NCBI GenBank assembly: GCA_001825115.1
Contig: MHUY01000016.1
Span: 13,792 to 53,492, forward strand
Direction: 5' to 3'
From: Candidatus Yonathbacteria bacterium RIFOXYC2_FULL_47_9
Lineage (GTDB): Bacteria; Patescibacteriota; Minisyncoccia; Phycocordibacterales; UBA1550
DNA: 39,701 nucleotides
Position 1 is the first letter of the stretch. Every line of letters begins with the position of its first letter. This document shows, one piece after another, positions 13,355-38,640 of this stretch. The position numbers were made by a program, and so were the translations under genes. The notes under the pieces are model-generated. The model did not search any database, was not told the DNA's origin, and saw only the letters and a program-made list of their open reading frames with translations.

Positions 13355-13372
13355 AAACAAGACTCCTTAGGT

Positions 13373-14450: not shown

Positions 14451-15032
14451 CTATCTTTTAGTTAAGAAATTAAGCAATTCAGCTCTATTTACATACCTTT
14501 TACCTCCGATGTTTACTTCCTTTAGACTCCCTGAAATCACCAACTTCTCTAGCTTGGCAGTTGATATAATCTTTTTCCCAGAGATGTCCTTAAATGAGAC
14601 ATATTTTTGATCAATTTCCTTTTGTGTGTCTTTTTTATATTTTTTAAACGAAACTTTTTCCCCAGAGGCAATGTCGGTGACGGTGGCCCTGGACATAATA
14701 CGTTTCATTTGGGGGGCGACAATAGCTAACATCGACAGCTCTTCCCCATTGAAATACTCTACCTTATTCAACCCAAAACGAAGTCCAATATCATTCCCGA
14801 TTCTCATGGCGTCATTCTTGTCCTCTACATAAACAATGCAATCCCCGCCTTCCAAATCGTGAGGCTGGCTATTTTTCGTCAGATAATGCTCCATGGACCT
14901 AAAAAGGCTCTCCTTTGACCGCCCCGAAGGGTGCCACAGAAAATCCGATGGTGAGATTCTAATATATTCTCTTTTGGTCTTTTCTTTCATTGTTTTATAA
15001 CCACTCTCTGAATGAACCCCGAGAAACCCCAT
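14451..15032 (-). CDS. Protein with a C-terminal excisionase/MerR-type helix-turn-helix
   Basis: The C-terminus LKEVNIGGKRYVNRAELLNFLTKR is the typical excisionase-family HTH ending. The N-terminal part is not recognised. Confidence 0.5.
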   Translation of the reverse strand: MGFLGVHSESGYKTMKEKTKREYIRISPSDFLWHPSGRSKESLFRSMEHYLTKNSQPHDLEGGDCIVYVEDKNDAMRIGNDIGLRFGLNKVEYFNGEELSMLAIVAPQMKRIMSRATVTDIASGEKVSFKKYKKDTQKEIDQKYVSFKDISGKKIISTAKLEKLVISGSLKEVNIGGKRYVNRAELLNFLTKR

Positions 15033-15053
15033 CTGCTTTCGTTAAGGTGAAGA

Positions 15054-18035: not shown

Positions 18036-18044
18036 ATTTTGTGT

Positions 18045-19118: not shown

Positions 19119-19125
19119 ATTGTTG

Positions 19126-20358: not shown

Positions 20359-20363
20359 ATGTG

Positions 20364-21569: not shown

Positions 21570-21573
21570 AATT

Positions 21574-23562: not shown

Positions 23563-23573
23563 AGTGATTGATA

Positions 23574-24710: not shown

Positions 24711-24912
24711 CCATCAAGCCTAGCACTTTAATATATAATATGCAAATTAAAAGTTTACCTACCATATTTTAATACGTCAGAGCCGTATTAAAGGCTGAGA
24801 ACACCCTTCTGAAGCTCTTTTTCTTGTATTTCACAAAAGCGATGACTTTGTATCAAATGTGAAATGCCCTATTAACACTATCCGAATCGATGGTGACCTC
24901 AAATGGACTAGA

Positions 24913-24950
24913 AACGAAAAATCGCCACCAGTTGGTGACGATATTTCGTT
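24913..24950. promoter_or_regulatory. 18-bp-arm inverted repeat in the intergenic region upstream of fic and ORF 25051
   Basis: AACGAAAAATCGCCACCA (24913-24930), a GT loop, then TGGTGACGATATTTCGTT (24933-24950). There are two mismatches in 18 bp. Confidence 0.4.
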
Positions 24951-25050
24951 GGCACTTGGCTACGGTTTATGATTTAACCGTGGGAGAACTAGGTCCTCAC
25001 AAATGCCTACAAACAGCATACACGATATACTTTAAAATGCACTCATTTGC

Positions 25051-25368
25051 ATGACTCTCTACGCTATAGTCCAAAAATATGCAATACTGCATAAACATAT
25101 GACTACAAAATATAGCGAAGAGTTTAAGGCCGACAATCCGGTACTCCCTCAATTACGTGAGGTGGTAGAAGAATCTGTAAAAGGCTCCAACCTCTCTCAG
25201 GAGCAAATTGATGCTATTTGTAAGAATGTTGGTGCTTTAATACTGGAAACAGTCCCAGAGCTTGTTTTTACAAACATGTCCGATTCGTTCCTTTTTGAAG
25301 GAGGCTTTGAAGAATGCACAAAACAGTCTTTCATTAACCTAAAAAATATCGGCATTGAGAAGAAATGA
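25051..25368 (+). CDS. Hypothetical protein
   Basis: A 105-aa ORF, the only plausible plus-strand gene here. No motif was recognised. Confidence 0.4.
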   Translation: MTLYAIVQKYAILHKHMTTKYSEEFKADNPVLPQLREVVEESVKGSNLSQEQIDAICKNVGALILETVPELVFTNMSDSFLFEGGFEECTKQSFINLKNIGIEKK

Positions 25369-25415
25369 AGTGGCCACCGCTTGATCCATCTTTTCTTGCA
25401 GAGAAACTCGGGGGG

Positions 25416-26306
25416 TTATTTTTGCTCCCAATACTGCGTTCCATATTCTGCTTGCAAATCACTAAAATTCACGATTGGTGCATTATATGTACTATCGGGA
25501 GGTATAAAATCAATTGACTCCATAAATACTTCTCCTGCTTTCCGTATCTCGGCGGTGTCAGCATACAGTAGGGCTATATTGTTTGTAATAGTCGAATACC
25601 AAACGTTGCTCTTAAGCCCCTCTGCAAATGTATTAAAATATGCTGGAAGAAGATACCGGGTCTTCCCTTCATCGTAAAAGACACGTCCTACTAGCGGATT
25701 TTGTTGAACGAGCTTTACTGCTGTTTCTGCAGTTGGGAACAATGCCTTTTCAAAACCTTCTTGCGCTGAATTCTTTATTGCAATCTGCATCGCCAAATCT
25801 ATCCAGGAAGTCGAGGTTGGGTGAGTATCAGGTGGCTCGCCGACCTCCTGAATAGGGCTAGACTTGACCCAGTCATACAGTTCTTGAACGAGCGTTTCTA
25901 AGGCTATGTTGTAATATTTAAATGCGTTATCTGTGTCTTTTGCTTTTTTATAGGTAAGAGCCAAACTGTTTAGAACGTCCATCCTTTCGAAGAAAGTCGT
26001 GTCATTTGAAAATCCATCAACATTTTTTTTGAGGTACTCTGTAGCTTTTCTATAGTCACCTTTTATTTGATAAATAACCCCGAGTTCAAAATTGAGGTCG
26101 TTTGAATCTGGGTATAAAGTAATCGCTTTTTTGCAAAATTCCTCGGCTCCATCTAAGTCTTCTATTTTTCTTGCAACATACGCCGAATAGTACCAATAAT
26201 CTAGGTCTTTTTGAGCTTCTTGCGTTCCAGACAAAATGTTTTGTGCAGAAGAATAGTCACCAACTCTGAGAAAAGCTTGGATTTGCTTATGTTGTTCTTC
26301 TTGCAT
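25416..26306 (-). CDS. TPR-repeat protein
   Basis: The N-terminal half contains successive 34-aa TPR-like units (W/Y-x-x-A-x-x-x-x-x-x-x-x-x-A-x-x-x-F-x-K-A, for example DLDYWYYSAYVARKIEDLDGAEEFCKKAITLYP). It lies 55 nt downstream of the GmrSD-like gene. Confidence 0.75.
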   Translation of the reverse strand: MQEEQHKQIQAFLRVGDYSSAQNILSGTQEAQKDLDYWYYSAYVARKIEDLDGAEEFCKKAITLYPDSNDLNFELGVIYQIKGDYRKATEYLKKNVDGFSNDTTFFERMDVLNSLALTYKKAKDTDNAFKYYNIALETLVQELYDWVKSSPIQEVGEPPDTHPTSTSWIDLAMQIAIKNSAQEGFEKALFPTAETAVKLVQQNPLVGRVFYDEGKTRYLLPAYFNTFAEGLKSNVWYSTITNNIALLYADTAEIRKAGEVFMESIDFIPPDSTYNAPIVNFSDLQAEYGTQYWEQK

Positions 26307-26360
26307 AATTTATTAATTGTTTGTGGGAGAATTCTTTATTCCAATTACCTCAACACATGA

Positions 26361-28502
26361 TCAAGCATCAGCATCTTGTCCCATCTGCTTCTCAAAAGCT
26401 TGCCTAACCAACCCCATTACGTAAGGTAGTTCCTCCATCTTTGAAAGACTAACTTCAACATCGCCATTACCCCAGCGACCAAGCGTTGAGACGTCTTTAC
26501 ACATTCCTTTTGGATCATCGACGTCAGCAAACTCAACATTCAATGAGAGTCGTAAGCGTTTTGCTTGAGGAACTACATCAACAAAATTAGTATCTGCTTT
26601 GTACGCAACATACAACTTCAGGAATGTTTCCGTAACACAGGGGTCGAGGGTAAGCACTTCCTTTCGGAAGGCCTCAAAAAGATTTCTCACCTCATCCCCA
26701 TACATTTCACTGCCTTTTGCCAAATAAGGATGGTCATCGATGGAGTATTCTGTCTTGATTTCAACTTTTGGATAATATTCGTCTAGGATTTCTTGAGGTA
26801 GTACCGGGGCCTGCCAAACACCAACCGCTATACCAGCAAGCTTACTAGCACGGGCTTTAATTGTGGCCTCATTCCATGATTCTAATGCCCCAAGTCCAAT
26901 ATTAAGCTTTAAGGGGCTTTGCTTTAATCCCTTCTCTGGAGCATTTGGCATGTCACGCTTATCTGCAAAAGGACGATCACTGTATTCAGAATTATATGCG
27001 GTGAGAGTTAAGTTACCGAGTGTGTGCAGCCATGTTTGTTGAACCCGTTGCCATTCTCCGCCTAGGGCATCAATCCATTCAGGTGAAAGATTTTTGTTTT
27101 GTGGCATGAGATGCTCAATAGTAAACTCATTTACTATTGCTCGTTCTTGGCGACCATGATTCTCCAGGCGACGCAGCCAGTAGCTACAACTACGGAAGTT
27201 GTAGAGATCGCGTGTTTGTAAGTCTCGGTGGAATTCTTCGTCTGTAGGAAATCGATGGAATGTTTGTAGCCCGAGAAAATGCGCTTGAATGCTTTCGAAA
27301 TACCGGTCCTTTCTCAGAGCCTTAGCAAACGATGCAAATGTCTTATTCATTGAGTTGGTTGGGATGGCACATATTGCACGGCGAAATACGTACGCCTCAA
27401 TCAACCGCACGCTCGCCAGCAAGTCTGACTTGGATAACATGCCTGCTTTGTAGTCATGGTACAACTCCAATAGAAACGGGTAGGCTACATCAACTTTTAG
27501 TTCCCTTAAGTCCTGGAAGGCAAGCTTCAGGTCGGCATCTGGCTCAGCGCCTAACGCCATTGTACAAAAATACCGTGCATAGTCACGTATATCACGAGTC
27601 AAATCTTCTACATGACTTTCATCATTAGTGGCATTTATTCTTGAAACTCGAGCATGTTCCTTGAAAGCATCGTAAACAGCATTAATATTAGGAATCTCCC
27701 TTGTTTTAACAGTAAGGTAGTGACGCATAAAAGCATCAAAGTGTGTACCATAGGCTTCCTGCCCAAAAGCAACTTCCATTGGCCTCCAGTACTGTTCATA
27801 GAGCCGAGTCTGAAGCTCTGGCTCGAGTCCCATTAAGATATAATTACGGATTAAATCAGCCTCACTCAATTCCTTACCAAGTGAGTTCATGCTCTCGAAA
27901 ATAAGCTGTGGGTTATCCTCCCCACGCTTGAGCTTGACGTCTACCATCAAAAGCTTTGCGAGTCCTTTGCAGACTACAGATAAGTCTCCTTTTTGACTTG
28001 AAATCAAGTCCTCGAACAATTTGAAGTTCTGCGTAATTCGTAGTGAATACTCGCTGGGTTGGTCTTGATTACCTATAATCGCAACAAGTGAGGTCTTATC
28101 GGTCTGCGAGAGAATTAATTTGAAGTATCGTTCTCCTTGTTCTAGTCGGTTGCATAAGTAATATTCACGTATCATCTCTGCGGAAAAACCTTCTATTAAA
28201 CTGGTCGAATCCTCTACCTTAGACAAAGCTGCCAGGAGTAACGTCACGGTAGTCAGACGCTGTTGCCCATCAATCACGAGTAATGGTTCCCACATTGCCA
28301 CATTAGCATCAGCCCTATCAATATAGACAACAGAACCAATAAAATGCACTACAATGTTGTCGTCGGCACCAGCTCGGAGGATATCATCCCAAAGCTGAAG
28401 ACATTCCTTCTCAGTCCAACAGTATGTACGCTGGTAAATAGGGATAACAAACTGAGGAGCATTCTTCAGGAAATTAAGGAGTTTTGTTTCAGATGCTTTC
28501 AT
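26361..28502 (-). CDS. GmrSD-like type IV (modification-dependent) restriction enzyme: DUF262 plus DUF1524 plus C-terminal extension
   Basis: DUF262 motifs are IPIYQRTYCW and DGQQRLTT. The DUF1524 His-Me finger block is FTIEHLMPQN...LGNLTLTAYNSEYSDRPFADK. There are an extra ~150 aa at the C-terminus. Confidence 0.85.
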   Translation of the reverse strand: MKASETKLLNFLKNAPQFVIPIYQRTYCWTEKECLQLWDDILRAGADDNIVVHFIGSVVYIDRADANVAMWEPLLVIDGQQRLTTVTLLLAALSKVEDSTSLIEGFSAEMIREYYLCNRLEQGERYFKLILSQTDKTSLVAIIGNQDQPSEYSLRITQNFKLFEDLISSQKGDLSVVCKGLAKLLMVDVKLKRGEDNPQLIFESMNSLGKELSEADLIRNYILMGLEPELQTRLYEQYWRPMEVAFGQEAYGTHFDAFMRHYLTVKTREIPNINAVYDAFKEHARVSRINATNDESHVEDLTRDIRDYARYFCTMALGAEPDADLKLAFQDLRELKVDVAYPFLLELYHDYKAGMLSKSDLLASVRLIEAYVFRRAICAIPTNSMNKTFASFAKALRKDRYFESIQAHFLGLQTFHRFPTDEEFHRDLQTRDLYNFRSCSYWLRRLENHGRQERAIVNEFTIEHLMPQNKNLSPEWIDALGGEWQRVQQTWLHTLGNLTLTAYNSEYSDRPFADKRDMPNAPEKGLKQSPLKLNIGLGALESWNEATIKARASKLAGIAVGVWQAPVLPQEILDEYYPKVEIKTEYSIDDHPYLAKGSEMYGDEVRNLFEAFRKEVLTLDPCVTETFLKLYVAYKADTNFVDVVPQAKRLRLSLNVEFADVDDPKGMCKDVSTLGRWGNGDVEVSLSKMEELPYVMGLVRQAFEKQMGQDADA

Positions 28503-28926
28503 GTGATTCTATGGTAGTAAGATTGTACAACGAAACTATATTTTTCACTATTGTTATCTTCTTTTTCCAATACCATACATAGAGGTAGAAATTCAGTACA
28601 GTTACTGTTGCGTGATAGCCTCGCGGACATCGTCCCGAATGCGAAGTAAAAAAAGTCTTGACTAAAAGGTGCTTGAGCCCTTAACCTACATATAATATTC
28701 CTCTGACTTGTTATCTTCATTCAAACACGATTCGTCAGTTCCGTTATCTATTCTCCTCTGACGAAGGATTTCTTCCTGTTCTCTATCCTCATCTCCATAC
28801 TTCTCATCTTCCAATTCACGTATTATTGCATTTAGTTTGTCGTCTACATCTTTTATTGCTTCTTCATTTCCACCTAGCCCCAGAAGTGGTGCCCGCTTAG
28901 CATTTAGAGTATGGCTACTGCAAGAA

Positions 28927-29433
28927 TTAGTTTTTAATAACCTCCTCAGTCATGGATAATATTTTTTTGAAAAATTCTAACCTCTCTTCTTCTGAGTCTA
29001 TTTGGCATAAAAATGACTGGAAGGTGTATACAAGAAATGCAATAATCTCATCGTTACTTAAATCGCCTGATGAAAGTACTTCTACACTCCTCTCTTTTTC
29101 TGCGTAGATGCACAGACAAAATTTATTTTTAAACAAAAGCAATAAATTTTCTAAATTTCGTTGGGTATTGTTTTCTTGAAAAATCTTTTTAACAAAAAAA
29201 CCGAGAAAATCCTTCCTGACACGAACATCCTCGCCCGCTTTTCTGGCGAAGTATCCGACAATGAGCGACAGACCAAATAATACTAATTGCTGCTGGTGCT
29301 CACTATTTTCATCCCATGAACATAGGTATCCTGAATTTTTATCAGAACCAATGGAAATAAAAAAGTAGTCATTTTCATTATTTATTAAGCTAGATTGTTT
29401 TTCTCTTGCTGAATTTAATTTATCTAAATGCAT
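28927..29433 (-). CDS. Hypothetical protein, possibly truncated by a frameshift (see findings)
   Basis: A 168-aa ORF. An 87-codon start-less open frame continues downstream in the +1 frame. Confidence 0.45.
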   Translation of the reverse strand: MHLDKLNSAREKQSSLINNENDYFFISIGSDKNSGYLCSWDENSEHQQQLVLFGLSLIVGYFARKAGEDVRVRKDFLGFFVKKIFQENNTQRNLENLLLLFKNKFCLCIYAEKERSVEVLSSGDLSNDEIIAFLVYTFQSFLCQIDSEEERLEFFKKILSMTEEVIKN

Positions 29434-29477
29434 ATTCTAGTGTAGTTATAGCGGTTTTTTATTAGCAATAATTATTT

Positions 29478-30326
29478 TTACTCACAAAATACCACCTCCT
29501 CTGTTGGTATCCCTAAATTCTCTGCAAACCACATGCGAGCAGCTTCTTGGTCGCCAAGAGCGTCGATGAGTTTGTTTTGAAGGGCAAGAGTTCCTGCCAT
29601 GGATGAACCGTCAGCAAGTTTTGCAACTTGTTCAATAGGTAGATTCCTGTTTTCTGCAACTTCTTTTACAAACTGCTCATGAAAGATTTTTAGATCCCTT
29701 TCAATTAACGCTCGTTCTGCTTGAGTAAGTGACTTATCAGGATTGCCATAATCCTTAAATTGAGCGGATGCCAATGGCACATACCGCAGACCATCCTTAA
29801 TGTTTTTTGCCGTGTTGTCCAAGTAAGACATCGTTATGCCGATACTGCCGACATCAGAGAATGCTGAGGCAATGATTGTGTCTGCTCCTGTTGCCGCAAG
29901 ATACGCACCAGAGGCCCCCGTCTCACGAATAAGCGCAACAGTTGGTAGCGATAGCCCTTTGATTTCATTCGCAATAATCTCCGAAGCAACCGGCACCCCA
30001 CCAGCGGAATCAATGGGTACAAGAACACCATGGATATTAGGGTCGTTTTCAGCCATACGAAGGGCAGCGAGCACATCGTCTGGGTTAGTAGATGGTGGCG
30101 GCGTAGCTCCACTACCATCCTCATTGGCACCACGATAAGGGATAATGTCTCCGACTATCGGTATCACTGCAATATTGCACGAGCCATCACTAACTGCATT
30201 TATCGCGTTATAGCCACTCCATTCGTCGTGCCAATTACCAAAAACCCATAGCCCGCTGGCAAAAACAAGAGTGCCCGCAGCGGACCATAATGCAATAGTT
30301 CTGATTTCTTGCTGGAGGGTTTTCAT
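29478..30326 (-). CDS. sppA: Signal peptide peptidase SppA (S49 family, 36K type)
   Basis: It has an N-terminal TM helix and S49 blocks VLVPIDSAGG and ETGASGAYLAATGADTIIA. The ORF-track start at 30374 is TTG. The ATG at 30326 (MKTLQQEIRTIALW) is preferred. Confidence 0.85.
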   Translation of the reverse strand: MKTLQQEIRTIALWSAAGTLVFASGLWVFGNWHDEWSGYNAINAVSDGSCNIAVIPIVGDIIPYRGANEDGSGATPPPSTNPDDVLAALRMAENDPNIHGVLVPIDSAGGVPVASEIIANEIKGLSLPTVALIRETGASGAYLAATGADTIIASAFSDVGSIGITMSYLDNTAKNIKDGLRYVPLASAQFKDYGNPDKSLTQAERALIERDLKIFHEQFVKEVAENRNLPIEQVAKLADGSSMAGTLALQNKLIDALGDQEAARMWFAENLGIPTEEVVFCE

Positions 30327-30370
30327 GCGAGGATTATACCATAATACTCGCTGTCTATTTACTATACTCG

Positions 30371-30475
30371 TCAATTATCACCCTTTGAACTTCATCCCAG
30401 GTGCGGAGCCAGCAAAATCACCCATATTTATATGGGTGATTTTCTTTACCACACTTAGGAGATCGAACCTACGGC
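30371..30475. repeat. tRNA-Asn 3'-half-like palindromic intergenic repeat, copy A
   Basis: The copy is 105 nt and has 9 mismatches to copy B by hand alignment. Its core is GAACTTCATCCCAGGTGCGGAGC (30387-30409). The central hairpin is AAAATCACCCATA/TATGGGTGATTTT (30414-30443). On the minus strand, 30461-30473 reads CGTAGGTTCGATC, identical to tRNA-Asn 7403-7415. Confidence 0.8.
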
Positions 30476-30488
30476 CGAATACTTTTCC

Positions 30489-31235
30489 CTACTTTGAATA
30501 TATAGCTAATTTTTGAGAAAAATCTTCTTCGAGTTCTTCAATACTCTTTCCTGTATGCTTTTGGTATTTCTTACGTATGGTCTCAGCGGTTTCTTCGCGA
30601 GTACATTCTGTATATAATTTCTTAAATACTTCTAATCCAAAAGTTTCTATAAGGTATTTAATCCATTCGCCCGCAAGCGCATAAAAATAAACCGCACCAT
30701 CCTGAGGAGTATCCAGCCAATCCTTTTCGGTAAGTATTTTTGATGGACTTAATTCATAGCCCTTAGCAATACCTTCTCTGACACACTCATCATGTGGCTC
30801 GCCATACCAATTGTGTCCCACCATATACTCTGCCAACCCCTCCTGTAGAAAATTAATTGAGATTCCCCAAGGAAGTGTCAGCAGATGAGTATCTTCATGT
30901 TCACCAATAGGCTTATCCTGTAGTGTGTATAAAACGTGAATACAAAATTCACCATAAATTGATTGTGCAAACCAATCATCTCCCATTAGTTCCGTTTTGA
31001 GTTCTGGGGTTGGATAAAAATAATATGTTATTTTCTGACCTAAGACAGGTACCTTGAGCTCGGTCACTATTTTTTGGAATGCTTGCTCTTGACGTTCTTT
31101 AATATGTTCGATATCTTTTTCTGCTTCAGAACCCTTAGTATAATAGAAAATATAATGTTCGGTTTCGACAGTAAGCCACCCCGAATACTCCTGAAATGTG
31201 TGGGAATAAGTTGGAAGATATTGTTTGTATTTCAT
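30489..31235 (-). CDS. Peptidase-MA-like zinc metalloprotease-domain protein
   Basis: An HExxH motif (GEHEDTHLL) is followed about 20 aa later by EGLAEY. That is the gluzincin arrangement seen in Peptidase_MA_2-type proteins. Confidence 0.6.
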   Translation of the reverse strand: MKYKQYLPTYSHTFQEYSGWLTVETEHYIFYYTKGSEAEKDIEHIKERQEQAFQKIVTELKVPVLGQKITYYFYPTPELKTELMGDDWFAQSIYGEFCIHVLYTLQDKPIGEHEDTHLLTLPWGISINFLQEGLAEYMVGHNWYGEPHDECVREGIAKGYELSPSKILTEKDWLDTPQDGAVYFYALAGEWIKYLIETFGLEVFKKLYTECTREETAETIRKKYQKHTGKSIEELEEDFSQKLAIYSK

Positions 31236-31280
31236 AAAAGGAAAGGTGGCTCTTAGAAGTTCAAGCCCCCCTTGACACTA

Positions 31281-31308
31281 TTGACATTAGCAAAGGGGTT
31301 GCTATAAT
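31281..31308 (+). promoter_or_regulatory. Near-consensus sigma70 promoter pointing antisense into the NYN gene
   Basis: TTGACA (31281-31286, with a second TTGACA at 31272-31277), a 16-nt spacer, then TGcTATAAT (hexamer 31303-31308). Confidence 0.45.
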
Positions 31309-31333
31309 ATGCATATCACTACGAAAGAGACCC

Positions 31334-31852
31334 TTATGCAGATACGTCTGCATCGGGGGCTTTTTCTTTTTGTCTCTCCGTAGAAAACTTATGGTAATGT
31401 TCATTCAAAAAAGTTATCTCTGTATTCTTATTTTTTAACAAGATAGAGCATTTCTTTTCGTCAGGAGAAACAACGCAATCAATCGCTTTGCTATTTTGCA
31501 AAAACTCCACCAAGCACCCGAAGTCACCATCTCCTGTTACCAAGATGCAGGAAGTAAATGCTTTTGTATAAAAATCTGATACGGTTTTAAGAACGAGCTC
31601 GGCATCACAATTACCTTTTATTGTTCCTCCAAATGATACCGTTTGCTTGAAGACAAGAATGAAGCCACATTCCTGGAGATGTTCATAGAATGATGTCCTG
31701 CTGGGCACAAGACCGATAAAAAGGTAGACGTTCGCAGGGCTGTATTTTTGACGGAGCCACCCACGAAACTTTTTATAATCTATTTCAAAACCTAGCTCTT
31801 TTGCAGAGCGATAAAGATTATTCCCATCGATGTAGATGTTTACTTTATTCAT
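31334..31852 (-). CDS. NYN-domain (LabA/DUF88-like, PIN-related) protein
   Basis: VNIYIDGNNLY near the N-terminus and LVTGDGDFGCLVEFL are the characteristic acidic NYN motifs. Confidence 0.8.
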   Translation of the reverse strand: MNKVNIYIDGNNLYRSAKELGFEIDYKKFRGWLRQKYSPANVYLFIGLVPSRTSFYEHLQECGFILVFKQTVSFGGTIKGNCDAELVLKTVSDFYTKAFTSCILVTGDGDFGCLVEFLQNSKAIDCVVSPDEKKCSILLKNKNTEITFLNEHYHKFSTERQKEKAPDADVSA

Positions 31853-31888
31853 AAAACTATTCTAACACACAAAATTTAATTGTTTTCC

Positions 31889-31993
31889 TCAATTATTACC
31901 CTCTGAACTTCATCCCAGGTGCGGAGCCAGCAAAATTACCCATATTTATATGGGTAATTTTTGTTACGACACTTAGGAGCTCGAACCTAAGGC
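31889..31993. repeat. tRNA-Asn 3'-half-like palindromic intergenic repeat, copy B
   Basis: The core is at 31905-31927. The hairpin is AAAATTACCCATA/TATGGGTAATTTT (31932-31961). The two hairpin differences from copy A (C to T, G to A) are compensatory. The T-arm-like CTTAGG-AGCTCGAA-CCTAAG is at 31972-31991. Confidence 0.8.
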
Positions 31994-32015
31994 GTGACTG
32001 CGATTCTACGACATA

Positions 32016-32044
32016 TTGCCTTATTCCTAAAACTAACCTAAAAT
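32016..32044 (+). promoter_or_regulatory. Candidate promoter giving a near-leaderless transcript for ORF 32054
   Basis: TTGCCT (32016-32021), a 17-nt spacer, then TAAAAT (32039-32044). The ATG at 32054 is only 9 nt past the -10 hexamer. Confidence 0.35.
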
Positions 32045-32053
32045 GTACATACT

Positions 32054-32662
32054 ATGAAATCAGGAACACTATTGCTTACCTCGATAGGACTATCTTCGCC
32101 AAATGTACTCAGTAGATTTCTTGAGATAGTTGGGGACACAAAGAATAAGCAGGTGGCGATTATCACGACTGCAGCCGAGGGGAAAGAAGTCAATAAGTAT
32201 TCTCAACTAGCCCACAAGCAGTTTGTAGACTTAGGCTTTTCAGGCGTAGATTTTGTTGACCTAGAAGCAGATCCGACGAAAGACCTTTCCCCATACGGTG
32301 TTATTTATGTTTGTGGTGGTAACACTTTTAAACTCCTTAAGTTTGCTCTAACAGCAAACTTTAAAAATTCCGTTGAATCATTGCTAAAAATGGGAGGTGT
32401 ATATATTGGCGTAAGCGCTGGAAGTATCATTGTTGGTCCATCGGTGAAAATTGCTGATGAAGTTCAGCCCGATCCCAACGAGGTTGGTATTAGTGATTTT
32501 TCAGGGCTTGGTATAATCAAAGAAATAGTCCTGCCACATTATTCTCCTGAGATTGAAGAGCAGGTAAAGATATTCGAAAATAAACACAATGTTATCATTG
32601 ATAGAATAGACAATTCCCAAGCTATTTTGGTGCAAGAAGGATATAAAACAATTATTGAATAA
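32054..32662 (+). CDS. Peptidase S51 (peptidase E-like) family protein
   Basis: VCGGNTFKLL and the nucleophile elbow GVSAGSII, plus a downstream LPHY, fit the S51 Ser-His layout. Confidence 0.75.
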   Translation: MKSGTLLLTSIGLSSPNVLSRFLEIVGDTKNKQVAIITTAAEGKEVNKYSQLAHKQFVDLGFSGVDFVDLEADPTKDLSPYGVIYVCGGNTFKLLKFALTANFKNSVESLLKMGGVYIGVSAGSIIVGPSVKIADEVQPDPNEVGISDFSGLGIIKEIVLPHYSPEIEEQVKIFENKHNVIIDRIDNSQAILVQEGYKTIIE

Positions 32663-32666
32663 AAAA

Positions 32667-32694
32667 ATAGAGGCATACAAAAGTATGCCTCTAT
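32667..32694. terminator. Bidirectional hairpin between convergent genes
   Basis: ATAGAGGCATAC, an AAAA loop, then GTATGCCTCTAT form a perfect 12-bp stem. It is preceded by an A-run and contains the stop codon of ORF 32691..33473. Confidence 0.6.
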
Positions 32695-33473
32695 AAAGCT
32701 AACAACTTACTAATTTCACTGATAATCACACTCACTTCTTCCATATCTTTTGGTGTGAACCGTGAAAGACGGAGAGCGAGCTTATATACAGGTAAACTGG
32801 AAGACTCAAGGAGGTGTGCCTGCTCAGCAAGCGATCTAAATCCTCGGAAATAGCAACGACTCCGAGCAAACGCGAGCCTGGTCAGCGAAGCCGTGATATC
32901 TGAGATGCATAAATTAAACTCAATCGAGCCCACACTTTCGTGAAGTTTCCCGAGTGTATTTAATTTCTGTTTAATCTCTTCTACACATAGTTCGCTGATT
33001 CCCTGTGAAAGCGATAGTGGGTATGGGATAATCAACTCCTTAATTTTGGAATGAATCCTTTTTGGATCATGCAGAGATTCTGCCGTGGCAAGATCCCCAC
33101 ACAACGCTTCAGGAACCCAATATCCAGTAGCCCAAGAACGATGTTGTCCATCGAGATCTTTCCTTTCTGTCCATTTTTGAATTTGTCCGACAAGCACAGA
33201 GGAGTTGCATACCGCAACCCCACCGCAACCTGTCGGTAACTCAAAACGAACACTATCATCACACACGGATAAATTTCCATTAGGCAAACAGTCTTTCAAG
33301 ATAGACTCGATAGTGGGGCCATATTTGTAAATATCCCCACCATCACATCCCACCAATAGATCAACGTGATTTTTTGGCAAATTCCTGTTTAACCCAACTA
33401 GCAAAAGTATTTCCATTCCTTGCATGTTGCGTAGTGCATGAGATAGCTCCGAAACAATCTGGCCTTTTTTCAT
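32691..33473 (-). CDS. Unknown protein, last gene of the AlaRS-like/radical SAM operon (nucleotidyltransferase fold only a weak guess)
   Basis: A 260-aa ORF. Its start overlaps the upstream stop as ATGA, preceded by AAAGGAG. LLLVGLNRNLPKNHVDLLVGCDGGD vaguely resembles an hG[GS]...D-x-D nucleotidyltransferase segment, but the motif is degenerate. Confidence 0.6.
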   Translation of the reverse strand: MKKGQIVSELSHALRNMQGMEILLLVGLNRNLPKNHVDLLVGCDGGDIYKYGPTIESILKDCLPNGNLSVCDDSVRFELPTGCGGVAVCNSSVLVGQIQKWTERKDLDGQHRSWATGYWVPEALCGDLATAESLHDPKRIHSKIKELIIPYPLSLSQGISELCVEEIKQKLNTLGKLHESVGSIEFNLCISDITASLTRLAFARSRCYFRGFRSLAEQAHLLESSSLPVYKLALRLSRFTPKDMEEVSVIISEISKLLAL

Positions 33474-34600
33474 ACCGACTCCTTTCTGTCAGAACATTCA
33501 TCAAGCTCAATGAGAACCGCTGAATATCCAAACGTAGATGCAAGATATTTGATATCATGTTCGTTAAGCAATCCTGTTTTTTGAGATTTGAGTTTTATGT
33601 ACTCCCTCCTCCCTCGTACAAGACTTTGTTCGAACTTTGATACCTCTTTCGTAAGTACCTGCAGAACGGTGTTCCGAGTAGCTTCTACTGAAACCCAGTA
33701 ATTGATTGATATCACACAGAACTCCTTGAATGGCAGCGAAATCTGCTGGCAAGTTACGTACGCTTCCCGAATGATTTTTCGGAGCACATATTCTGCCGCC
33801 TTATTGCCTGGGACAAGCCCTTGAGAAACCAACAAAGTTGACGCCTTACCTAAATCAGCAAGCCGACATACTTTTGTGTAGCTATGGTTTGAAGAACATT
33901 TCTCAAGAGATTGCACAACCTGTTTCCATAAGGAATTTTCATAGTTGTTGCTACAGTGTTCAATTACCGTAACAATGCGATCAATACTTGCCCCAGAATC
34001 TGCTGCGATTTTCTCCATTGGAGAACAAAAAAGAGTGTTGCCCTGGAATTGTGTAAAAACTAAATTCCAGAGCTCAGTCAATTTCATTGTTTCTGGATTT
34101 TGCCACACAATTTCTGTTCGCAATCCGCACAGTGTTTTAGAAGGAGTAAAAGCCACATTCTCGTTATTCGAGATTGTTTCAACCCCTAACCCATCCCAAA
34201 CTTTTTGTGATACATCATCTTGCGGATGAACCGTTGCTAAAAGGTTGCGCGAATTTATCCCCGCGCAATCAGTTAAAAATTGCCAAGCACTTTCAATCAT
34301 CAAGCTCTTTACCGCCTGCTCGTCATTTTCGTAAAGTGAAAAATGGCCAAGCATGTCGAACGCAAGATGATGTCTTCCAGAAATACCAATCTTTTCCCAT
34401 CCATCAGTTCTCAAGCAGGTCTGAATCGAGGATATTCGTGGAACGTTCGCGGTTAACCCGCGAGCTATCGCGTCCTCGAATACAACCCCGCCTGAGATAT
34501 TAAACAGAAGTTTCTGGTTGAGACTAATGATTGGGTCACTTTCTTTCCATCGGAAACCGTAGTTTCCAAAATGGTTTTTGATATCATTTCGCAATTTCAT
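33470..34600 (-). CDS. Stand-alone AlaRS-like protein (aminoacylation plus tRNA-recognition region only; no editing or C-Ala domains)
   Basis: Block-by-block resemblance to AlaRS: GRHHLAFDMLGHFSL (RHHTFFEMLGNFSF), LTELWNLVFTQFQ (IEIWNIVFMQFN), ADSGASIDRIVTVIEHCSNNYE ([22 protein letters not shown]) and AAEYVLRKIIREA (RGYVLRRIIRRA). The ATG at 34600 gives MKLRNDIKNHFGNYGF. Confidence 0.8.
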   Translation of the reverse strand: MKLRNDIKNHFGNYGFRWKESDPIISLNQKLLFNISGGVVFEDAIARGLTANVPRISSIQTCLRTDGWEKIGISGRHHLAFDMLGHFSLYENDEQAVKSLMIESAWQFLTDCAGINSRNLLATVHPQDDVSQKVWDGLGVETISNNENVAFTPSKTLCGLRTEIVWQNPETMKLTELWNLVFTQFQGNTLFCSPMEKIAADSGASIDRIVTVIEHCSNNYENSLWKQVVQSLEKCSSNHSYTKVCRLADLGKASTLLVSQGLVPGNKAAEYVLRKIIREAYVTCQQISLPFKEFCVISINYWVSVEATRNTVLQVLTKEVSKFEQSLVRGRREYIKLKSQKTGLLNEHDIKYLASTFGYSAVLIELDECSDRKESV

Positions 34601-35823
34601 GGAGAACCTCCTTTCGCTAGATGTTTGAATACCGTCTGTCTGATGGCATAAGTGAATGTGCTCATATCTGGATGAGTGACAAGTCCATAATTTTGATCCC
34701 ACCTGACAACGTGAGCAGAAATACCCAAATTGTCTAGGATGATCTGCGCGTGTTCAGTTGTCATGCTACAAGAGGATTTTTGAGCACAGATTTGTCGCTG
34801 AGCGAGGGGGCAATGAGATGACTCACATTCCTCTCGTGCAAAGATTTGGACCGAAGTAATACTTGGTAATCCGAGCATCTTTGTTAATGCGCATGAAGAC
34901 TTGAGGTACACGGGGACTCCAGGGAAGTGCTCCTCGCTTAAAGAAAGAATGGTATCCACTAAATCTTTAGGCAAGGACTTCACATTGTCGTCACGAGGAA
35001 TGTTTGGCATAGGGAGCTTATGAATTTCCACAAGACCATTTTCTATGCCTTCAGTCCAACGTAACCCTCCGGGGACAATCATGTCAATAACGTTTCCATA
35101 ATGTTTCTTAACCCACAGCATCATCATCTCAATTCTGTCCGGATTTCCACTCCACTCTGGAACAATCGGGCGCATATACCATGCAATAATAACTCCCGCT
35201 TCCTTTGCTTCTTCGACACTAAGAAAGCGATTATTACGAACAGGCTCAATCGTGTCAGGATTATCTGCCCAACATATCGAAATCATGAGCCCGCGAGTTG
35301 CTCTGGTAATTCTTGCCAGATCGAGTTTCCTCCCTTTAGGGATTCCACCCTTAGTGACAATCCAGAAAGGGTTTTTGAATCCCCTCCTCACGAACGATTC
35401 CATAATCTCGAAAGTGCTGTCAGTCACCTGTCCTGGGGCAAATGGCTCCGTACTCGCTGTCCCAATGCTGATCACCGTTTCATCAACAATGAAAAACGGA
35501 TGCTTCACTAATTCATCAATGATCTGATCAACAGTAAAAGAATTGCGCCGCTGAGGCTTCCTCGGCATCATTCCGTGTTCGACAAGATCTTGATGCGTGC
35601 CCTGCACATGACAATATCTGCATTGCCATGCACAACCAGCCCACAAGTCTATACTCAGTGAGTTGTTGGACACACTTACCGACGAAAGAGGATGTTTGCA
35701 GTCGGGAACAAGAACTCCGTATGTATATTCACGCAAAGAGAACTCTTGCCCAGTAGTCATTCCCTTAATTTGAACGATGGGCTCCGAATTTGCAGCCGTA
35801 AAGTAGTCCCGTTTAGATTTCAT
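34597..35823 (-). CDS. Radical SAM protein, SPL/COG1533-like
   Basis: The CxxxCxxC motif sits in SIDLWAGCAWQCRYCHV, the context typical of the spore-photoproduct-lyase-like radical SAM group. The protein is 408 aa with a C-terminal Cys cluster (CESSHCPLAQRQICAQKSSC). Confidence 0.75.
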   Translation of the reverse strand: MKSKRDYFTAANSEPIVQIKGMTTGQEFSLREYTYGVLVPDCKHPLSSVSVSNNSLSIDLWAGCAWQCRYCHVQGTHQDLVEHGMMPRKPQRRNSFTVDQIIDELVKHPFFIVDETVISIGTASTEPFAPGQVTDSTFEIMESFVRRGFKNPFWIVTKGGIPKGRKLDLARITRATRGLMISICWADNPDTIEPVRNNRFLSVEEAKEAGVIIAWYMRPIVPEWSGNPDRIEMMMLWVKKHYGNVIDMIVPGGLRWTEGIENGLVEIHKLPMPNIPRDDNVKSLPKDLVDTILSLSEEHFPGVPVYLKSSCALTKMLGLPSITSVQIFAREECESSHCPLAQRQICAQKSSCSMTTEHAQIILDNLGISAHVVRWDQNYGLVTHPDMSTFTYAIRQTVFKHLAKGGSP

Positions 35824-36569
35824 ATGGCTGCTCCTTTCAAGTAGTTGATATTCTGAACTATTTGGTCTGTAGTTGTCATGCCGACAACTACAGATGTTTC
35901 TAGTTTCAGAGTACGCGTTAAGATTTCCATCGCCGATACGTCAGCTTGTCGTTCGTCGCTCATCAAAATCTTTCCTTGCAGAAAGAGACTTCTGAGTAAT
36001 ACTTCCTTCCCTAACCTCTTTAGCTGTGGGAGCTGATAAACTATCCACTGCTCGTGAAGATTGTACGGTGCTTCAATTACATCAATATGTTCAAGAACAC
36101 TTTCATCAATGTAATCAGAAAAACCATTGGGAAGAGAGATGCCAACTTTCCTAACGACACCAATTTCTTTTAGCTCATTTAGGGCTTTAAGAATATGGGT
36201 AGCATTTTTTTGCCATAATGGTATCCAGTTGTGTAGCAATAAGATATCAATCGAATTTCGCCCGAGCCTACTTAAAGACTGCTCTGCGCTTCGATGAATG
36301 TTGTCACGTGAGTAACATTTATCGATAGGCATTTTGGTGTCGGGCTTCAAGATTGCAGGGATCTTTGTGAGGATCACCGCTTCTTGCGACAGACATGCTC
36401 CGAGTATTTTCTCGACATTTCCTTGCCCATAGACTGCTGCTGTGTCAAACTTGTAGATTCCGTGAGATAGTGCGAGCTGAATCAAATTCTCAATCTGTGT
36501 ATTCGTAAGATCTTTGAACTGCCCAGATAATTGCCATGTGCCAAAATAGAGGCGATCGTTCCATTTCAT
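35820..36569 (-). CDS. Aldo/keto reductase family protein (short form)
   Basis: FGTWQLSG...FDTAAVYGQGNVEKILG carries the Asp and Tyr of the tetrad. LTKIP carries the Lys and IDILLLHNW the His. AAGGAGG lies 7 nt upstream of the ATG. Confidence 0.85.
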   Translation of the reverse strand: MKWNDRLYFGTWQLSGQFKDLTNTQIENLIQLALSHGIYKFDTAAVYGQGNVEKILGACLSQEAVILTKIPAILKPDTKMPIDKCYSRDNIHRSAEQSLSRLGRNSIDILLLHNWIPLWQKNATHILKALNELKEIGVVRKVGISLPNGFSDYIDESVLEHIDVIEAPYNLHEQWIVYQLPQLKRLGKEVLLRSLFLQGKILMSDERQADVSAMEILTRTLKLETSVVVGMTTTDQIVQNINYLKGAAI

Positions 36570-36733
36570 GATATTTCCTCCTTGTAATGTCTAAAGTTGT
36601 AAATGAACAAATGGTTCGTCTGCCATAAATCTACAACATACATCGCCGCTCGTCAAGCTTTGACTAAAATCGCAATGTGTATTACTGTGCAGTAAGTCTC
36701 GATCTTTAAAATCTACGATAAGGAGTATATGAA

Positions 36734-37657
36734 ATGAAAATTATTGCCGTGAGTTCTTCTACGTATTCACAAATTGAAGCAAGTCTATGGAAAGATGACA
36801 GATTTCAGCCGGTCGGTGACCACAAGGTAAAGATAGAGCTGGATGATGGCTCAATCGTGGAAGCAGGTGTTTTTGAGGTAACGAAGGGTCACAAAAAAGA
36901 ATTTCATGCATGCATATCCACGCAGGCCGGCTGTAAATTCAAATGCTCGTTTTGTTCTTCTGGTGCTAGGGGTTTTGAGAGAGATTTATCTTGTGATGAA
37001 ATCCTCGAAGAAATTTCAATTCTGGCAAAGTTGGCAAAGATAGAATCATTTGATCGCCTGATGTATATGGGAATAGGTGAGCCGATGGATAATTTTGACA
37101 ATGTTGTTGGAAGCATACAACAACTTCTTGAAATTAATCCCGCGTATGTTGGCAGAATTTCTTTAGCAACAATTGGTATACTGCCAAAGTTGCATAAATT
37201 AGCATTGCTCAAGCTTCCCTTAAGAAGGATCTGGGTGTCTCTGCATGCAGCCTCTGACGAAAAAAGGTTGCAGATTATGCCCATCAGCAAAGTATATAAA
37301 GCTAAGGAACTTGTAGTCGCAGCAAAAGCCTTTGCTGAAGTCTCTGGTACAGAAACATGGCTTAACTATATGATCTTTCAAGGCTTCAATGATTCTCTGG
37401 AAGATGCTTCGAAGTTGGTTGAGTTGCTTAAAGACACCGAAGACGATTTGTCTGTGGTAATCACTGTTCCCAATGGCGAGAGGTCTGGCTATGTTGGGGG
37501 CAGTTTGGAAGATGTGCATAGATTCCAAAATTATCTCATAGAGCTGGGAATGAAGAATCGTACAGAGCACTTTTTTTCTGTCGGACGCTCTTCAAACGCG
37601 GGCTGTGGGGAATTCGTTTTCTACCCCAGCAGTACAAAAATAGCTGTTTGTAGTTAA
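36734..37657 (+). CDS. RlmN/Cfr-family radical SAM methyl synthase, N-terminally truncated
   Basis: HACISTQAGCKFKCSFCSSGARGFERDLSCDEI aligns to [33 protein letters not shown]. Other matching blocks are MGIGEPMDNFDNVV, ISLATIGILPKL, VSLHAASDE and a C-terminal NAGCGEF (AACGQL). AAGGAG lies 8 nt upstream of the ATG. Confidence 0.85.
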   Translation: MKIIAVSSSTYSQIEASLWKDDRFQPVGDHKVKIELDDGSIVEAGVFEVTKGHKKEFHACISTQAGCKFKCSFCSSGARGFERDLSCDEILEEISILAKLAKIESFDRLMYMGIGEPMDNFDNVVGSIQQLLEINPAYVGRISLATIGILPKLHKLALLKLPLRRIWVSLHAASDEKRLQIMPISKVYKAKELVVAAKAFAEVSGTETWLNYMIFQGFNDSLEDASKLVELLKDTEDDLSVVITVPNGERSGYVGGSLEDVHRFQNYLIELGMKNRTEHFFSVGRSSNAGCGEFVFYPSSTKIAVCS

Positions 37658-37684
37658 ATAAAATTGTATATATTTTAGAACTGA

Positions 37685-37713
37685 GGGGTTCACTGTGTGG
37701 ACCCCTTTTTTTT
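37685..37713 (+). terminator. Rho-independent terminator after the RlmN/Cfr-like gene
   Basis: GGGGTTCA, a CTGTG loop, then TGGACCCC, followed by TTTTTTTT. Confidence 0.65.
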
Positions 37714-37745
37714 ATTACCTCTCTTCCTTGCTTAGTGGTTTTCTT

Positions 37746-37863
37746 CAATAATTATTTGCTGAACTTCATCCCAGGTGCGGAGCAATAAAAGAAATGGCCC
37801 TCTTCTGAGGGTCTTTTCTTTTATCTAGCTTCCGCGAGTGTGGGGACCGAACCGTAGGCTCCC
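37746..37863. repeat. tRNA-Asn 3'-half-like repeat, copy C (diverged outside the core)
   Basis: Bases 37759-37783 (CTGAACTTCATCCCAGGTGCGGAGC) are identical over 25 nt to copy B 31903-31927. A different hairpin plus T-run follows at 37796-37820. A minus-strand GGTTCGGTCCCC T-loop-like segment lies at about 37842-37855. Confidence 0.7.
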
Positions 37864-37897
37864 GATTTCTTAAGTTGTAATCAACTTGTTGAAATCG
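37863..37897. other. Two-tier hairpin in a 380-bp non-coding region
   Basis: CGATTTC/GAAATCG (7 bp) and AAGTTG/CAACTT (6 bp) stems, with a TT/GTT internal loop and a 4-nt apical loop. Confidence 0.5.
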
Positions 37898-38039
37898 CAG
37901 TGTCCTAGATTTATCATGGCCCCACCATTTTGGGAATGAGAGTAATCTCGAAGACCTACAAAATGGATGGTCTCGACCGCAAGGAGAGGCGTTCATACCA
38001 GTATGCATGTTTTTATGGAACTATTGTATTATTTAATGT

Positions 38040-38495
38040 ATGGAAATTAGAGACTATAATAAAAAGGACAAAGAAGCGGTGCAAAATATTTTTACCAAGT
38101 ACTGGACTGACGAGGAATTCTTGAGCGAGCTCTCAGAAAATATAGATAGTGGCAAGATGCATTTTTATGTTGCAGAAAAAGATGGAGAAGTGATTGGTGT
38201 TGCTGGGTTTAGAGAAGCACCAGAATACCTTCATGATTATGCGGAAACAAAAAATCCCGCAGAGTTGTATGTAGTAGCTTCTCAATTACAAAATGAAGGT
38301 ATTGGGAGCATGCTTGTACAAAAAGTAATTGATGAAGCAAAGAATTTATATTTTACAGAAATAGAATGCTATAGCCCTGAAACCCATAGTAGCTCATGGA
38401 AATTCTATGAGAAACTTGGGTTTACGAGACACGGAATTATCAAGGATCCTGACGATGGATACCCCGGAATGCTCTGGAGAAAAATTATTTTATAG
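38040..38495 (+). CDS. GNAT family N-acetyltransferase
   Basis: The protein is 151 aa. The acetyl-CoA binding motif A is LQNEGIGSMLVQKVIDEA, and FYEKLGF is present near the C-terminus. Confidence 0.85.
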   Translation: MEIRDYNKKDKEAVQNIFTKYWTDEEFLSELSENIDSGKMHFYVAEKDGEVIGVAGFREAPEYLHDYAETKNPAELYVVASQLQNEGIGSMLVQKVIDEAKNLYFTEIECYSPETHSSSWKFYEKLGFTRHGIIKDPDDGYPGMLWRKIIL

Positions 38496-38592
38496 CAACC
38501 GACTAAGGTAAATTTTTATCTCCCTTGGCGCTCGAACATCTTTAGTCCCCTCTCAGTCCCGTTCCAGCTCAAAGCACTGACCTATTTACAAA

Positions 38593-38640
38593 CGCGGAGC
38601 CAACAAGAAAAATCAGAGATATGGAATCTCCGGTTTTTTC
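38593..38640 (+). repeat. Possible fourth, partial copy of the tRNA-3'-end-plus-hairpin module (copy D)
   Basis: CGCGGAGCCAACAAGAAAAATCAGAG resembles GTGCGGAGCCAGCAAAATCACCC of copies A and B, and CCGCGGAGCA of the tRNA. A hairpin and TTTTTT follow. There is no similarity upstream of it. Confidence 0.35.

Follow-up and report, generated by a model that had tools for sequence, protein, structure and literature searches.

The 39.7-kb stretch of DNA analysed here (hereafter the window) comes from a Yonathbacteria-like member of the Parcubacteria from groundwater and contains a tRNA-Asn gene, an island integrated beside it and a family of repeats within that island. In the window, priA, def, fmt, a PPIase gene and pyk precede the tRNA-Asn (GTT) gene, which lies at 7357..7429 on the plus strand (ARAGORN; Rfam tRNA, 72 bits) and is the only tRNA that ARAGORN detected in the window. 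Overlapping its end on the opposite strand is the gene for a large serine recombinase (LSR) of 562 aa (7417..9105, minus strand; PF00239 Resolvase and PF07508 Recombinase). Related loci and contigs are given L numbers and proteins P numbers, P0001 being the recombinase of the window. P0001 has 1492 homologues at E<=1e-20; those with a named source are annotated as Parcubacteria, Paceibacterota or Nomurabacteria, and its sequence is only distantly related to that of any solved structure. The open reading frame (ORF) of P0001 ends in KPVFSTML followed by RG and a stop, its last codons (CTC CGC GGG TAG) being the antisense of the tRNA acceptor and T-stem; the early stop arises because the ORF runs antisense into tRNA-Asn. 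On the element side, the 3' end of the gene reads ...TCTACTATGCTCC.

An earlier note, made from the letters alone, had described the repeats as two convergent tRNA-Asn-like arms around a terminator hairpin. Three copies are confirmed, namely A (30355-30476), B (31876-31994) and C (37732-37863), all in direct orientation relative to tRNA-Asn, so that the common orientation noted earlier stands; the repeat search delimited its three members at 30358-30416, 31876-31934 and 37732-37790, with 91% identity over 108 nt between A and B. A recount bore out the 9 differences in 105 positions reported between A (30371-30475) and B (31889-31993), two of which (30419 C>T and 30438 G>A) are compensatory within the central hairpin. 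Equally sound were the identical 25-mer common to B and C (CTGAACTTCATCCCAGGTGCGGAGC) and the presence on the minus strand of copy A of CGTAGGTTCGATC, identical to tRNA positions 7403-7415. The unit of ~105 nt is an imperfect palindrome with fold z-scores of -2.6 to -7, and Rfam, at gathering and E-value thresholds, has no family over the repeats. No further copies were found elsewhere in the window, and a profile of the conserved arm matched A, B and C only; a site at 38.6 kb scored E=120 (nhmmer) and is not a family member. The tRNA likeness was then found to hold for one arm and to fail for the other. For the minus arms, alignment to the tRNA-Asn 3' part was equalled by 0 (A), 5 (B) and 3 (C) of 2000 shuffles, the arm of C being native flank as described below; for the plus arm, 256 of 2000 shuffles scored as high, and its alignment consists of GCGGAGC alone. 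Compared with each other, the two arms of the unit show no significant likeness (score 9).

Read on the minus strand, the plus arm is an open frame closed by a stop codon, encoding LRTWDEVQRVIIDEYSK in copy A, LRTWDEVQRVIIEENN in copy B, LRTWDEVQQIIIEENH in copy C and MLRTWDEVQRAIIEGK in a metagenomic relative, L012. The endings include ...EENN and ...EENH; differences among the four are mostly synonymous or conservative, and the one length difference is exactly 3 nt. For comparison, the C-termini of 120 listed homologues among the 1492 were classified. All of them share ...FEPKN..LNEKT....PVFS(T/M)(M/L)L and diverge thereafter: about 70 end two residues past that point (RG, GR, RE and others), about 13 continue through the antisense tRNA T-arm (QGSNLRPIA...), and nine carry xTWDxVRxxI tails, such as FSMLLQTWDEVRQIVINN in P0041, FSTMLRTWDDVRTDILERK in P0083 and FSTLLRTWDNVRKEVKNDK in P0033. 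A hidden Markov model (HMM), built from those nine database tails only and searched against 2302 stop-to-stop six-frame fragments of the window, ranked C (E=1.7e-5), B (1.1e-3), A (3.4e-3) and a further site, Z (0.04), as its top four; with P0041 as the tblastn query, the arm of copy C matched at 55.6% over 27 aa. The unrecombined state is found in L022 and L024, where no tRNA lies nearby and the ORF continues from ...TTTTTTCTATGCTGCTCC directly into the tail, AAACATGGGATGAAGTTCGG.... Since the plus arm encodes a homologue of the recombinase tail, it can be taken as the element-borne P half of the attachment site attP. By these sequence comparisons it is the detached 3' end of a recombinase gene, and the displaced tRNA 3' end proposed in the earlier note has to be given up.

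The junctions themselves are composed as follows. In copy A, the P arm (30355..30409, minus strand) ends in the core GCGGAGC (30403-30409), and its right half (30410..30476, plus strand) consists of CA, an A-run, a hairpin (30414-30443), a T-run and an inverted arm resembling the tRNA-Asn T-arm (30448-30476). In copy B, the P arm occupies 31876..31927 (minus strand), with the stop codon of the tail 23 nt upstream of the start of an NYN gene, and the right half (31928..31994, plus strand) holds a hairpin (31932-31961) and an inverted tRNA-like arm (31966-31994). A and B have right halves that are 91% alike, of the form CAGCAAAATCACCC...TAGGAGATCGAACC. In copy C, which marks the distal end of the island, the P arm lies at 37732..37783 (minus strand; core 37777-37783) and is followed on the plus strand by 37784..37999, comprising a spacer, a terminator hairpin (37796-37813), an inverted arm like the tRNA-Asn 3' end (37828-37863) and a block at 37956-37999. 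Site Z (28602..28700, minus strand) has a diverged tail, LLRIRDDVREAITQQ and a stop, whose match at 28605-28661 on the minus strand was detected at the protein level only, together with a weak hairpin and, by eye, a GTAGGTT remnant upstream. Z is probably a fourth, diverged junction, the evidence being marginal. Z, A and B share the layout P-core-(spacer, hairpin, inverted T-arm-like arm), and their right halves differ in sequence from that of C.

The identity of copy C follows from a comparison with L035 (GCA_964642305.1), a locus without a recombinase. There, the real tRNA-Asn ends in ...CCCGCGGAGC and is followed by AATAAAAGTAATGACCCTC...GCTTCCGCGTGTGTAGGGATCGAACCGTAGG...TGGATGGTCTCGAC, GCGGAGC being joined directly past the tRNA to AATAAAAGTAATGACCCTCTTCCTGAGGGTCATTACTTTTATCTAGCTTCCGCGTGTGTAGGGATCGAACCGTAGGCCC...TGGATGGTCTCGACTGACAAGGAGAGGCG. 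Positions 37777-37999 of the window are colinear with this sequence and near-identical from the core onward. Left of the core the two part: L035 has the tRNA there, and the window the P arm. The sites compared were attB from L035, attL at 7423-7430, attR at 37777-37784 (copy C) and attP from the homologous elements L022 and L024 only. Their breakpoints fall between CCCTACCCGCGGAGC and AATAAAAG in attB, between ...GCGGAGC and ATAGTAGAAAAAAC in attL, and between CCCAGGTGCGGAGC and AATAAAAG in attR. The sites thus obey attL = B+P', attR = P+B', attB = B+B' and attP = P+P' with a short shared core, and the LSR gene adjoins one of the junctions, as in an LSR element. The crossover core GCGGAGCA could be narrowed only to GCGGAGC(A), which lies at 7423..7430 (plus strand) in attL, where the tRNA 3' end forms the B arm, and is common to attL, junctions A, B and C and the attB of L035. 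Only these letters are duplicated because the crossover takes place right at the tRNA's 3' terminus.

Because its right half is colinear with the L035 sequence that follows the real tRNA-Asn, copy C is the true attR (P-core-B') of a 30.4-kb island. By the same token, the hairpin and inverted tRNA-like arm at C are the native flank of attB and not a product of integration; L025 has a comparable architecture of hairpin and inverted arm at its real tRNA. The semblance of two convergent tRNA-like arms flanking a hairpin comes from native B' itself, in which the terminator hairpin of the tRNA precedes a partial, inverted copy of the tRNA 3' end. The earlier view that the repeats bound DNA integrated at tRNA-Asn therefore stands, and of the module boundaries it placed, those at 30.4, 31.9 and 37.8 kb are real junctions; the module drawn at 37.9-38.6 kb has no support, and the island ends at 37783.

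At the other end of the island, the P' segment (7431..7466, plus strand) comprises the spacer ATAGTAG with an A-run, a hairpin and a T-run, lies antisense in the recombinase ORF and encodes NEKTDRLKPVFS there. Its hairpin (7437-7466), terminator-like with respect to the tRNA, is thus embedded within the ORF at 7417-9105. This hairpin is kept in five homologous genes, whose stems differ in sequence yet still pair; in four of them the fold on the tRNA strand is the more stable by 3-7 kcal/mol, and in the fifth, L023, the two strands are about equal. The P' hairpin, written in the ORF as the codons of NEKT....PVFS, thus fits the role of a replacement terminator for the tRNA.

Related loci display the same target and the same architecture. 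tRNA-Asn is also the target in L023, L029, L031, L032 and L035. In L023, a recombinase 74% identical to P0001 is integrated beside hpf, fmt, def and priA and ends in FSTMLRG and a stop in the antisense tRNA-Asn. L029 holds two elements in tandem: next to tRNA-Asn is an element with a different LSR of 500 aa (ending ...WLRG), beyond which lies an older element encoding P0002, and the P0002 ORF now ends in FSMML followed by PLYDEIRTHFEKNGDNAD and a stop, which is the P arm of the newer element. A near-identical P arm, PLYDEIRTYFELNPNAD and a stop, occurs at the distal edge of the related island with a 500-aa LSR in L031. As read from its sequence, L029 thus directly demonstrates tandem accretion at tRNA-Asn. 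A third LSR lineage is represented by a 556-aa protein in L032, which ends in ...SMLRG at the equivalent point. At least three LSR lineages (500, 556 and 562 aa; L029 18247-19749, L031 8230-9732, L032 8062-9732 and the window 7417-9105) therefore use one point in tRNA-Asn, and in each the ORF extends across the junction to an MLRG or WLRG terminus. The earlier note had asked for a comparison of insertions and deletions among related genomes, and these do differ at this tRNA: beside an identical pyruvate kinase gene, L031, L033 and L034 carry an island different from that of L032, and L025 and L035 have no recombinase at the tRNA-Asn locus. The site is therefore polymorphic.

We consider it very probable that the repeats are attachment-site junctions of LSR-family integrative elements at the extreme 3' end of tRNA-Asn. 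The comparisons demonstrate the tail homology, the breakpoints, the native B' of copy C, the tRNA-Asn target, and the accretion and polymorphism among relatives. By the proposed mechanism, crossover would take place inside the recombinase's own ORF, about 15 codons ahead of its natural stop. The circular attP form would read ...PVFSTML-RTWDEVxxxIIxxx and a stop, and the full-length form would be FSTML joined to a tail such as RTWDEVQRVIIDEYSK. Integration would join the ORF to the antisense tRNA, where a stop follows RG, while the detached tail segment (the P arm) would move to the far end of the element and be joined there, via GCGGAGC(A), to the sequence formerly downstream of the tRNA (B'). 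The empty attB of this locus would then be tRNA-Asn...GCGGAGC joined to AATAAAAGAAATGG. Z, A and B may be internal junctions of the P-core-B' type that delimit modules gained by accretion or co-mobilisation. In this scheme, a conserved tail of ~15 aa would be swapped for RG on integration, excision against any of the four P arms could rebuild the full-length ORF, and the tail may influence activity or directionality.

Several observations weigh against this explanation. Under simple accretion, internal junctions should be P-core-P', the 3' end of a recombinase gene forming their right half, as in L029, whereas the right halves of A and B are of the B' type; the origin of these two copies needs an extra step. 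Moreover, Z is only marginally significant (E=0.04), the codon-like conservation of the tail rests on five sequences, and attP or a circular junction of this exact element was not observed. In the source population, for which 23 NYN-carrying contigs were read and 10 loci compared (L001-L010), there is no polymorphism at Z, A, B and C. We favour the view that the internal junctions are attR sites that arose at other loci and were brought in with composite elements, or cassettes swapped through the ~105-nt homologies. The internal junctions are read in this way because the right halves of A, B and L012 resemble native B' in architecture, with a hairpin and an inverted T-arm-like arm in a visual, unscored alignment; in the same kind of alignment, L012 and L025 share an extra hairpin at the same position.

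Alternatively, Z, A and B could be P-core-P' junctions of tandem elements whose older recombinase genes were deleted down to the hairpin, which we regard as unlikely. Such junctions do form in L029, copy C in the tail frame reads IKEKTLRRGPFLLLL-RTWDEV and so resembles LNEKTDRLKPVFSTML, and past the core, C and L012 have right halves reminiscent of P' (AATAAAAG and ATATAAAAG against ATAGTAGAAAAAAC). The EKT..F..L resemblance is uninformative, however, because any A-run, hairpin and T-run gives such residues and because the right half of C is native flank. The B' architecture shared by A, B and L012, with the extra hairpin of L012 and L025, speaks against the deletion of tandem elements as well, and no recombinase remnant was detectable at the internal right halves; likewise, a search to the right of C for remains of a recombinase gene detected nothing beyond 27 codons.

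That the plus arms are tRNA-Asn 3' ends displaced by successive integrations, in the manner of tyrosine-integrase islands, is very improbable. The arms do lie in the orientation of the tRNA and share with it GCGGAGC and a loose TTC.ATCCC resemblance, and genuine displaced ends exist in relatives (CCCTACCCGCGGAACC in L031 and CCCTACCCGCGGAGCC in L025). The plus arm, however, shows no significant likeness to the tRNA past 7-8 nt, has its homologues among recombinase tails and is continuous with the recombinase ORF in L022 and L024. An Islander-type tRNA island was rejected on similar grounds: its repeat should copy a tRNA 3' segment, typically of at least 15 nt, and the repeats have no more than GCGGAGC(A) in common with the tRNA. 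Nor did the minus arms extend significantly into a complete pseudo-tRNA.

Other tRNA-like ends were noted as separate observations. On the distal edge of their tRNA-Asn loci, several species share the conserved block TGGATGGTCTCGAC..CAAGGAGAGGCG, found at 37956-37999 in the window, at 2000-2043 in L031 (93% identity to the window block, at the distal edge of that island), at ~5525-5490 in L035 and at ~9320-9290 in L025; a genuine displaced tRNA end, CCCTACCCGCGGA, comes directly after it in L031 and L025. The block is probably an older attR of another element type. In addition, at 38590-38640 of the window, the terminator of a GNAT gene is preceded by CGCGGAGCCA, the tRNA-Asn 3' end plus CCA, which may be chance or a very old scar. 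In L025, two copies of a 57-nt palindrome, GCGGAGC AAAACAACAAC TGGCCCTTTTGGGGCC TTTTGTTTT GCTCCGC, at ~9485-9425 and ~8810-8755, flank about 650 nt with a promoter-like TTGACA/TATGCT site and no Rfam match; the pair may be a tiny integrated element at this recombinase-free locus.

The earlier note had itself offered another possibility, a lineage-specific palindromic terminator repeat spread by transposition, akin to repetitive extragenic palindromic (REP) elements or miniature inverted-repeat transposable elements (MITEs). Such a repeat could account for the ~105-nt imperfect palindrome with its terminator-like central hairpin, its fold scores and the compensatory changes between A and B. It can hardly be upheld, however, as only three or four copies exist, confined to one island, with no mutually matching terminal inverted repeats, no target-site duplication seen on reading the flanks and no Rfam family, and as half of copy C is native flank joined to the tRNA at attB. 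The genome-wide search that the note had called for gave the same picture: the exact core had no match in 185,579 species genomes or in viral contigs, a codon-degenerate DNA pattern gave chance coding matches only in the genome collection, and 241 million metagenome records yielded a single true relative, L012. An origin of the palindrome by inversion or fold-back is unnecessary, because L035 shows it to be native.

Just as implausible is an independent gene in the conserved arm, whether for a peptide of 16-17 aa or for a small RNA (sRNA) that ends at the hairpin terminator. ATG (L012) or TTG (C) stands directly ahead of LRTWDEV, all copies have an aligned -10-like hexamer on the plus strand, and by reading, the T-run is better on the plus strand. 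Yet a start codon is missing from A and B, whose frame is closed by a TGA four codons upstream, the promoter is not conserved, and homology to the recombinase C-terminus explains the peptide. A mini-ORF (MKFKG) or sRNA was rejected in the same way, neither start codon nor promoter being conserved. The order of a T-loop-like motif, a hairpin and a start-less ORF also recalls transfer-messenger RNA (tmRNA), but ARAGORN was negative for a tmRNA or permuted tRNA-like gene with a tag peptide, Rfam gave nothing relevant, and tail homology explains the ORF. Integron attC sites were set aside, with no RYYYAAC/GTTRRRY cores seen on reading the repeat ends and no tyrosine integrase in the 20 ORFs scanned against Pfam, as were variable and template repeats of diversity-generating retroelements, group IIC intron ends and IS200/IS605 ends, with no reverse transcriptase, IntI, intron domains or transposase in the scanned ORFs. 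Finally, a tandem-tail peptide query of 5.8 billion proteins had no match at E<=10, which disposes of a remnant of a widespread host gene; it follows that this protein set holds no assembled full-length P0001 with its tail.

A bolder extension of the attachment-site explanation is that the tail swap acts as a state switch and that the array forms an LSR-based, integron-like platform of cassettes for nested excision, serving defence genes in bacteria of the Candidate Phyla Radiation (CPR). We regard this proposal as speculative and rather doubtful. If it held, only the circular form or a tandem junction would yield full-length recombinase, the chromosomal copy would always be truncated at FSTMLRG, and activity, stability or directionality would differ between the two forms. 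The four P arms would also allow alternative nested excisions of ~21, 23, 24.5 or 30 kb, each restoring the full-length ORF. The convergence of three unrelated-looking LSR lineages on one crossover, all ending in MLRG or WLRG, fits such a switch. As to the nature of the unrecombined elements, L022 and L024 each carry a Phage_rep_O-like gene divergent from the recombinase (L022 9029-9574; L024 194-700), and L024 also has Gabija-like genes (AAA_15/21-TOPRIM and a UvrD helicase) and ArdC; such a gene content may reflect plasmid- or phage-like forms capable of replication.

LSR-driven tandem islands at a stable-RNA gene are a known kind of element, seen here with a self-splitting tail and a palindromic native attB. 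For example, SCCmec (with CcrAB) and integrative and conjugative elements with their cis-mobilisable relatives (ICE/CIME) show LSR-mediated serial integration at one site, with direct-repeat boundaries and recombinase-less modules mobilised in cis. In contrast to SCCmec, the target here is a tRNA and not rlmH, one recombinase gene takes the place of ccrA and ccrB, and the repeat carries a recombinase tail. In the integration-dependent immunity of mycobacteriophages, attP lies in the repressor gene, and integration alters the C-terminus of an element-encoded protein. There, however, the repressor is affected, the integrase is a tyrosine recombinase and the removed tail is a degradation tag.

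The closest precedent, likened by arrangement and not by comparison with the DsiB sequence, is that of the ssrA-specific islands of Dehalococcoides, which use the CcrB-like serine integrase DsiB (McMurdie et al., 2011; PMC3146451). In both systems, the LSR gene lies beside an attL formed at the 3' end of a gene for a small, stable RNA, and its ORF overlaps attL, and tandem islands have direct repeats between them; integrase-less modules were read there as cis-mobilisable or accreted (PMC3146451). The systems differ in that the target here is tRNA-Asn and not the tmRNA gene ssrA, the hosts here are CPR bacteria (Parcubacteria), and a core of 7-8 nt at the extreme 3' end replaces the T-loop crossover and 20-bp repeat. 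Furthermore, no second small serine recombinase was seen beside the LSR here, unlike the six-gene integration module with DsiA. The overlapping tail is conserved in 9 of 120 homologues here, whereas the authors judged their own overlap unlikely to be functional (PMC3146451).

Two further systems share single features with the island. In the archaeal SSV-type ('suicidal') integrases, as described by Badel et al. (2020; PMC7253208), the recombination site also lies in the integrase ORF and a gene fragment comes to rest at the far end. Those enzymes are tyrosine recombinases, and the split inactivates the gene, whereas here a serine recombinase has only ~14-16 C-terminal codons swapped. Such self-splitting is found here in that the ORF ends at FSTML and its tail at C, B, A and Z; all recognised recombinase domains are kept after the split, and ~70 of 120 homologues are in the truncated state. 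The tycheposons of Prochlorococcus are likewise cargo elements that target tRNA genes, with newcomers that push older ones inward, and they leave degenerate elements and partial att repeats, a minority using large serine recombinases (Hackl et al., bioRxiv 10.1101/2020.12.28.424599). Unlike the present elements, they mostly use tyrosine recombinases and leave partial-tRNA repeats, and the passages of the preprint consulted do not mention splitting of an integrase tail. No description of this system in CPR bacteria was found in the literature.

Mobile elements of CPR bacteria are poorly described, and the tRNA-mimicking palindrome can now be parsed into attL, attR and attB of a previously uncharacterised LSR family that is abundant in Parcubacteria. 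tRNA-Asn thereby emerges as a hot spot for the exchange of defence genes in CPR bacteria, including type I restriction-modification (R-M), GmrSD, Fic, Gabija-like and other systems. The att sites are concrete, with the core given above, a P arm of ~25 nt and an attB formed by the tRNA-Asn 3' end and its terminator, and could serve as a new integrase and landing-pad pair. In addition, the detached conserved recombinase tail offers a marker for delimiting such islands in metagenomes.

From its gene content and junction positions, the whole integrated array spans 7431..37783 (30.35 kb), and its GC content is lower. Module 1 (7431 to ~28601) holds the recombinase, a LOOT RNA with a protease gene, a type I R-M system, Fic (SoFic) and GmrSD; module 2 (~28662-30354) a 168-aa protein and an S49 peptidase; module 3 (30477-31875) a 248-aa protein and NYN; and module 4 (31995-37731) an S51 peptidase and an operon of AlaRS-like and radical-SAM genes. 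Apart from a hit to NYN, PADLOC named no system for the small modules. After each tail, a cargo gene follows on the same strand, namely the S49 peptidase gene after A, the NYN gene after B and a NUDIX-like gene (by motifs) in L012, and the order of tail and NYN also occurs in L035. Each of these cargo genes has an extended -10 box (TGnTAtAAT) exactly 6 nt ahead of its ATG (minus strand; 30318-30340 and 31846-31870 in the window, ~226-250 in L012) and no Shine-Dalgarno sequence, which suggests that they may be expressed as leaderless mRNAs.

Some of the cargo deserves mention in its own right. The cluster at 32691-37657 encodes a stand-alone homologue of the AlaRS catalytic domain (376-410 aa), two radical-SAM-like proteins, the S51 peptidase, an aldo-keto reductase fragment and a 260-aa protein without a family match; it could represent a tRNA-dependent or amino-acid-ligating pathway. 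The LOOT RNA (Rfam RF03000) was found at 10887-11007 in the window (plus strand, 86 bits), at 5025-5140 in L023 (72 bits) and at 2723-2848 in L029 (61 bits). It lies directly upstream of a Trypsin_2-type protease gene in these three different elements with this recombinase family, and thus looks like a conserved leader or sRNA of a mobile-element cargo module. In L035, identical direct repeats of at least ~90 nt (~3430-3520 and ~5293-5383), each a hairpin with the tRNA-like scar GCTCCGCGGG...GGTCGAAA, flank a 1.86-kb segment that contains an NYN gene, a tail relic and a DUF3800-V RNA (RF02964, 74 bits; 4432-4528).

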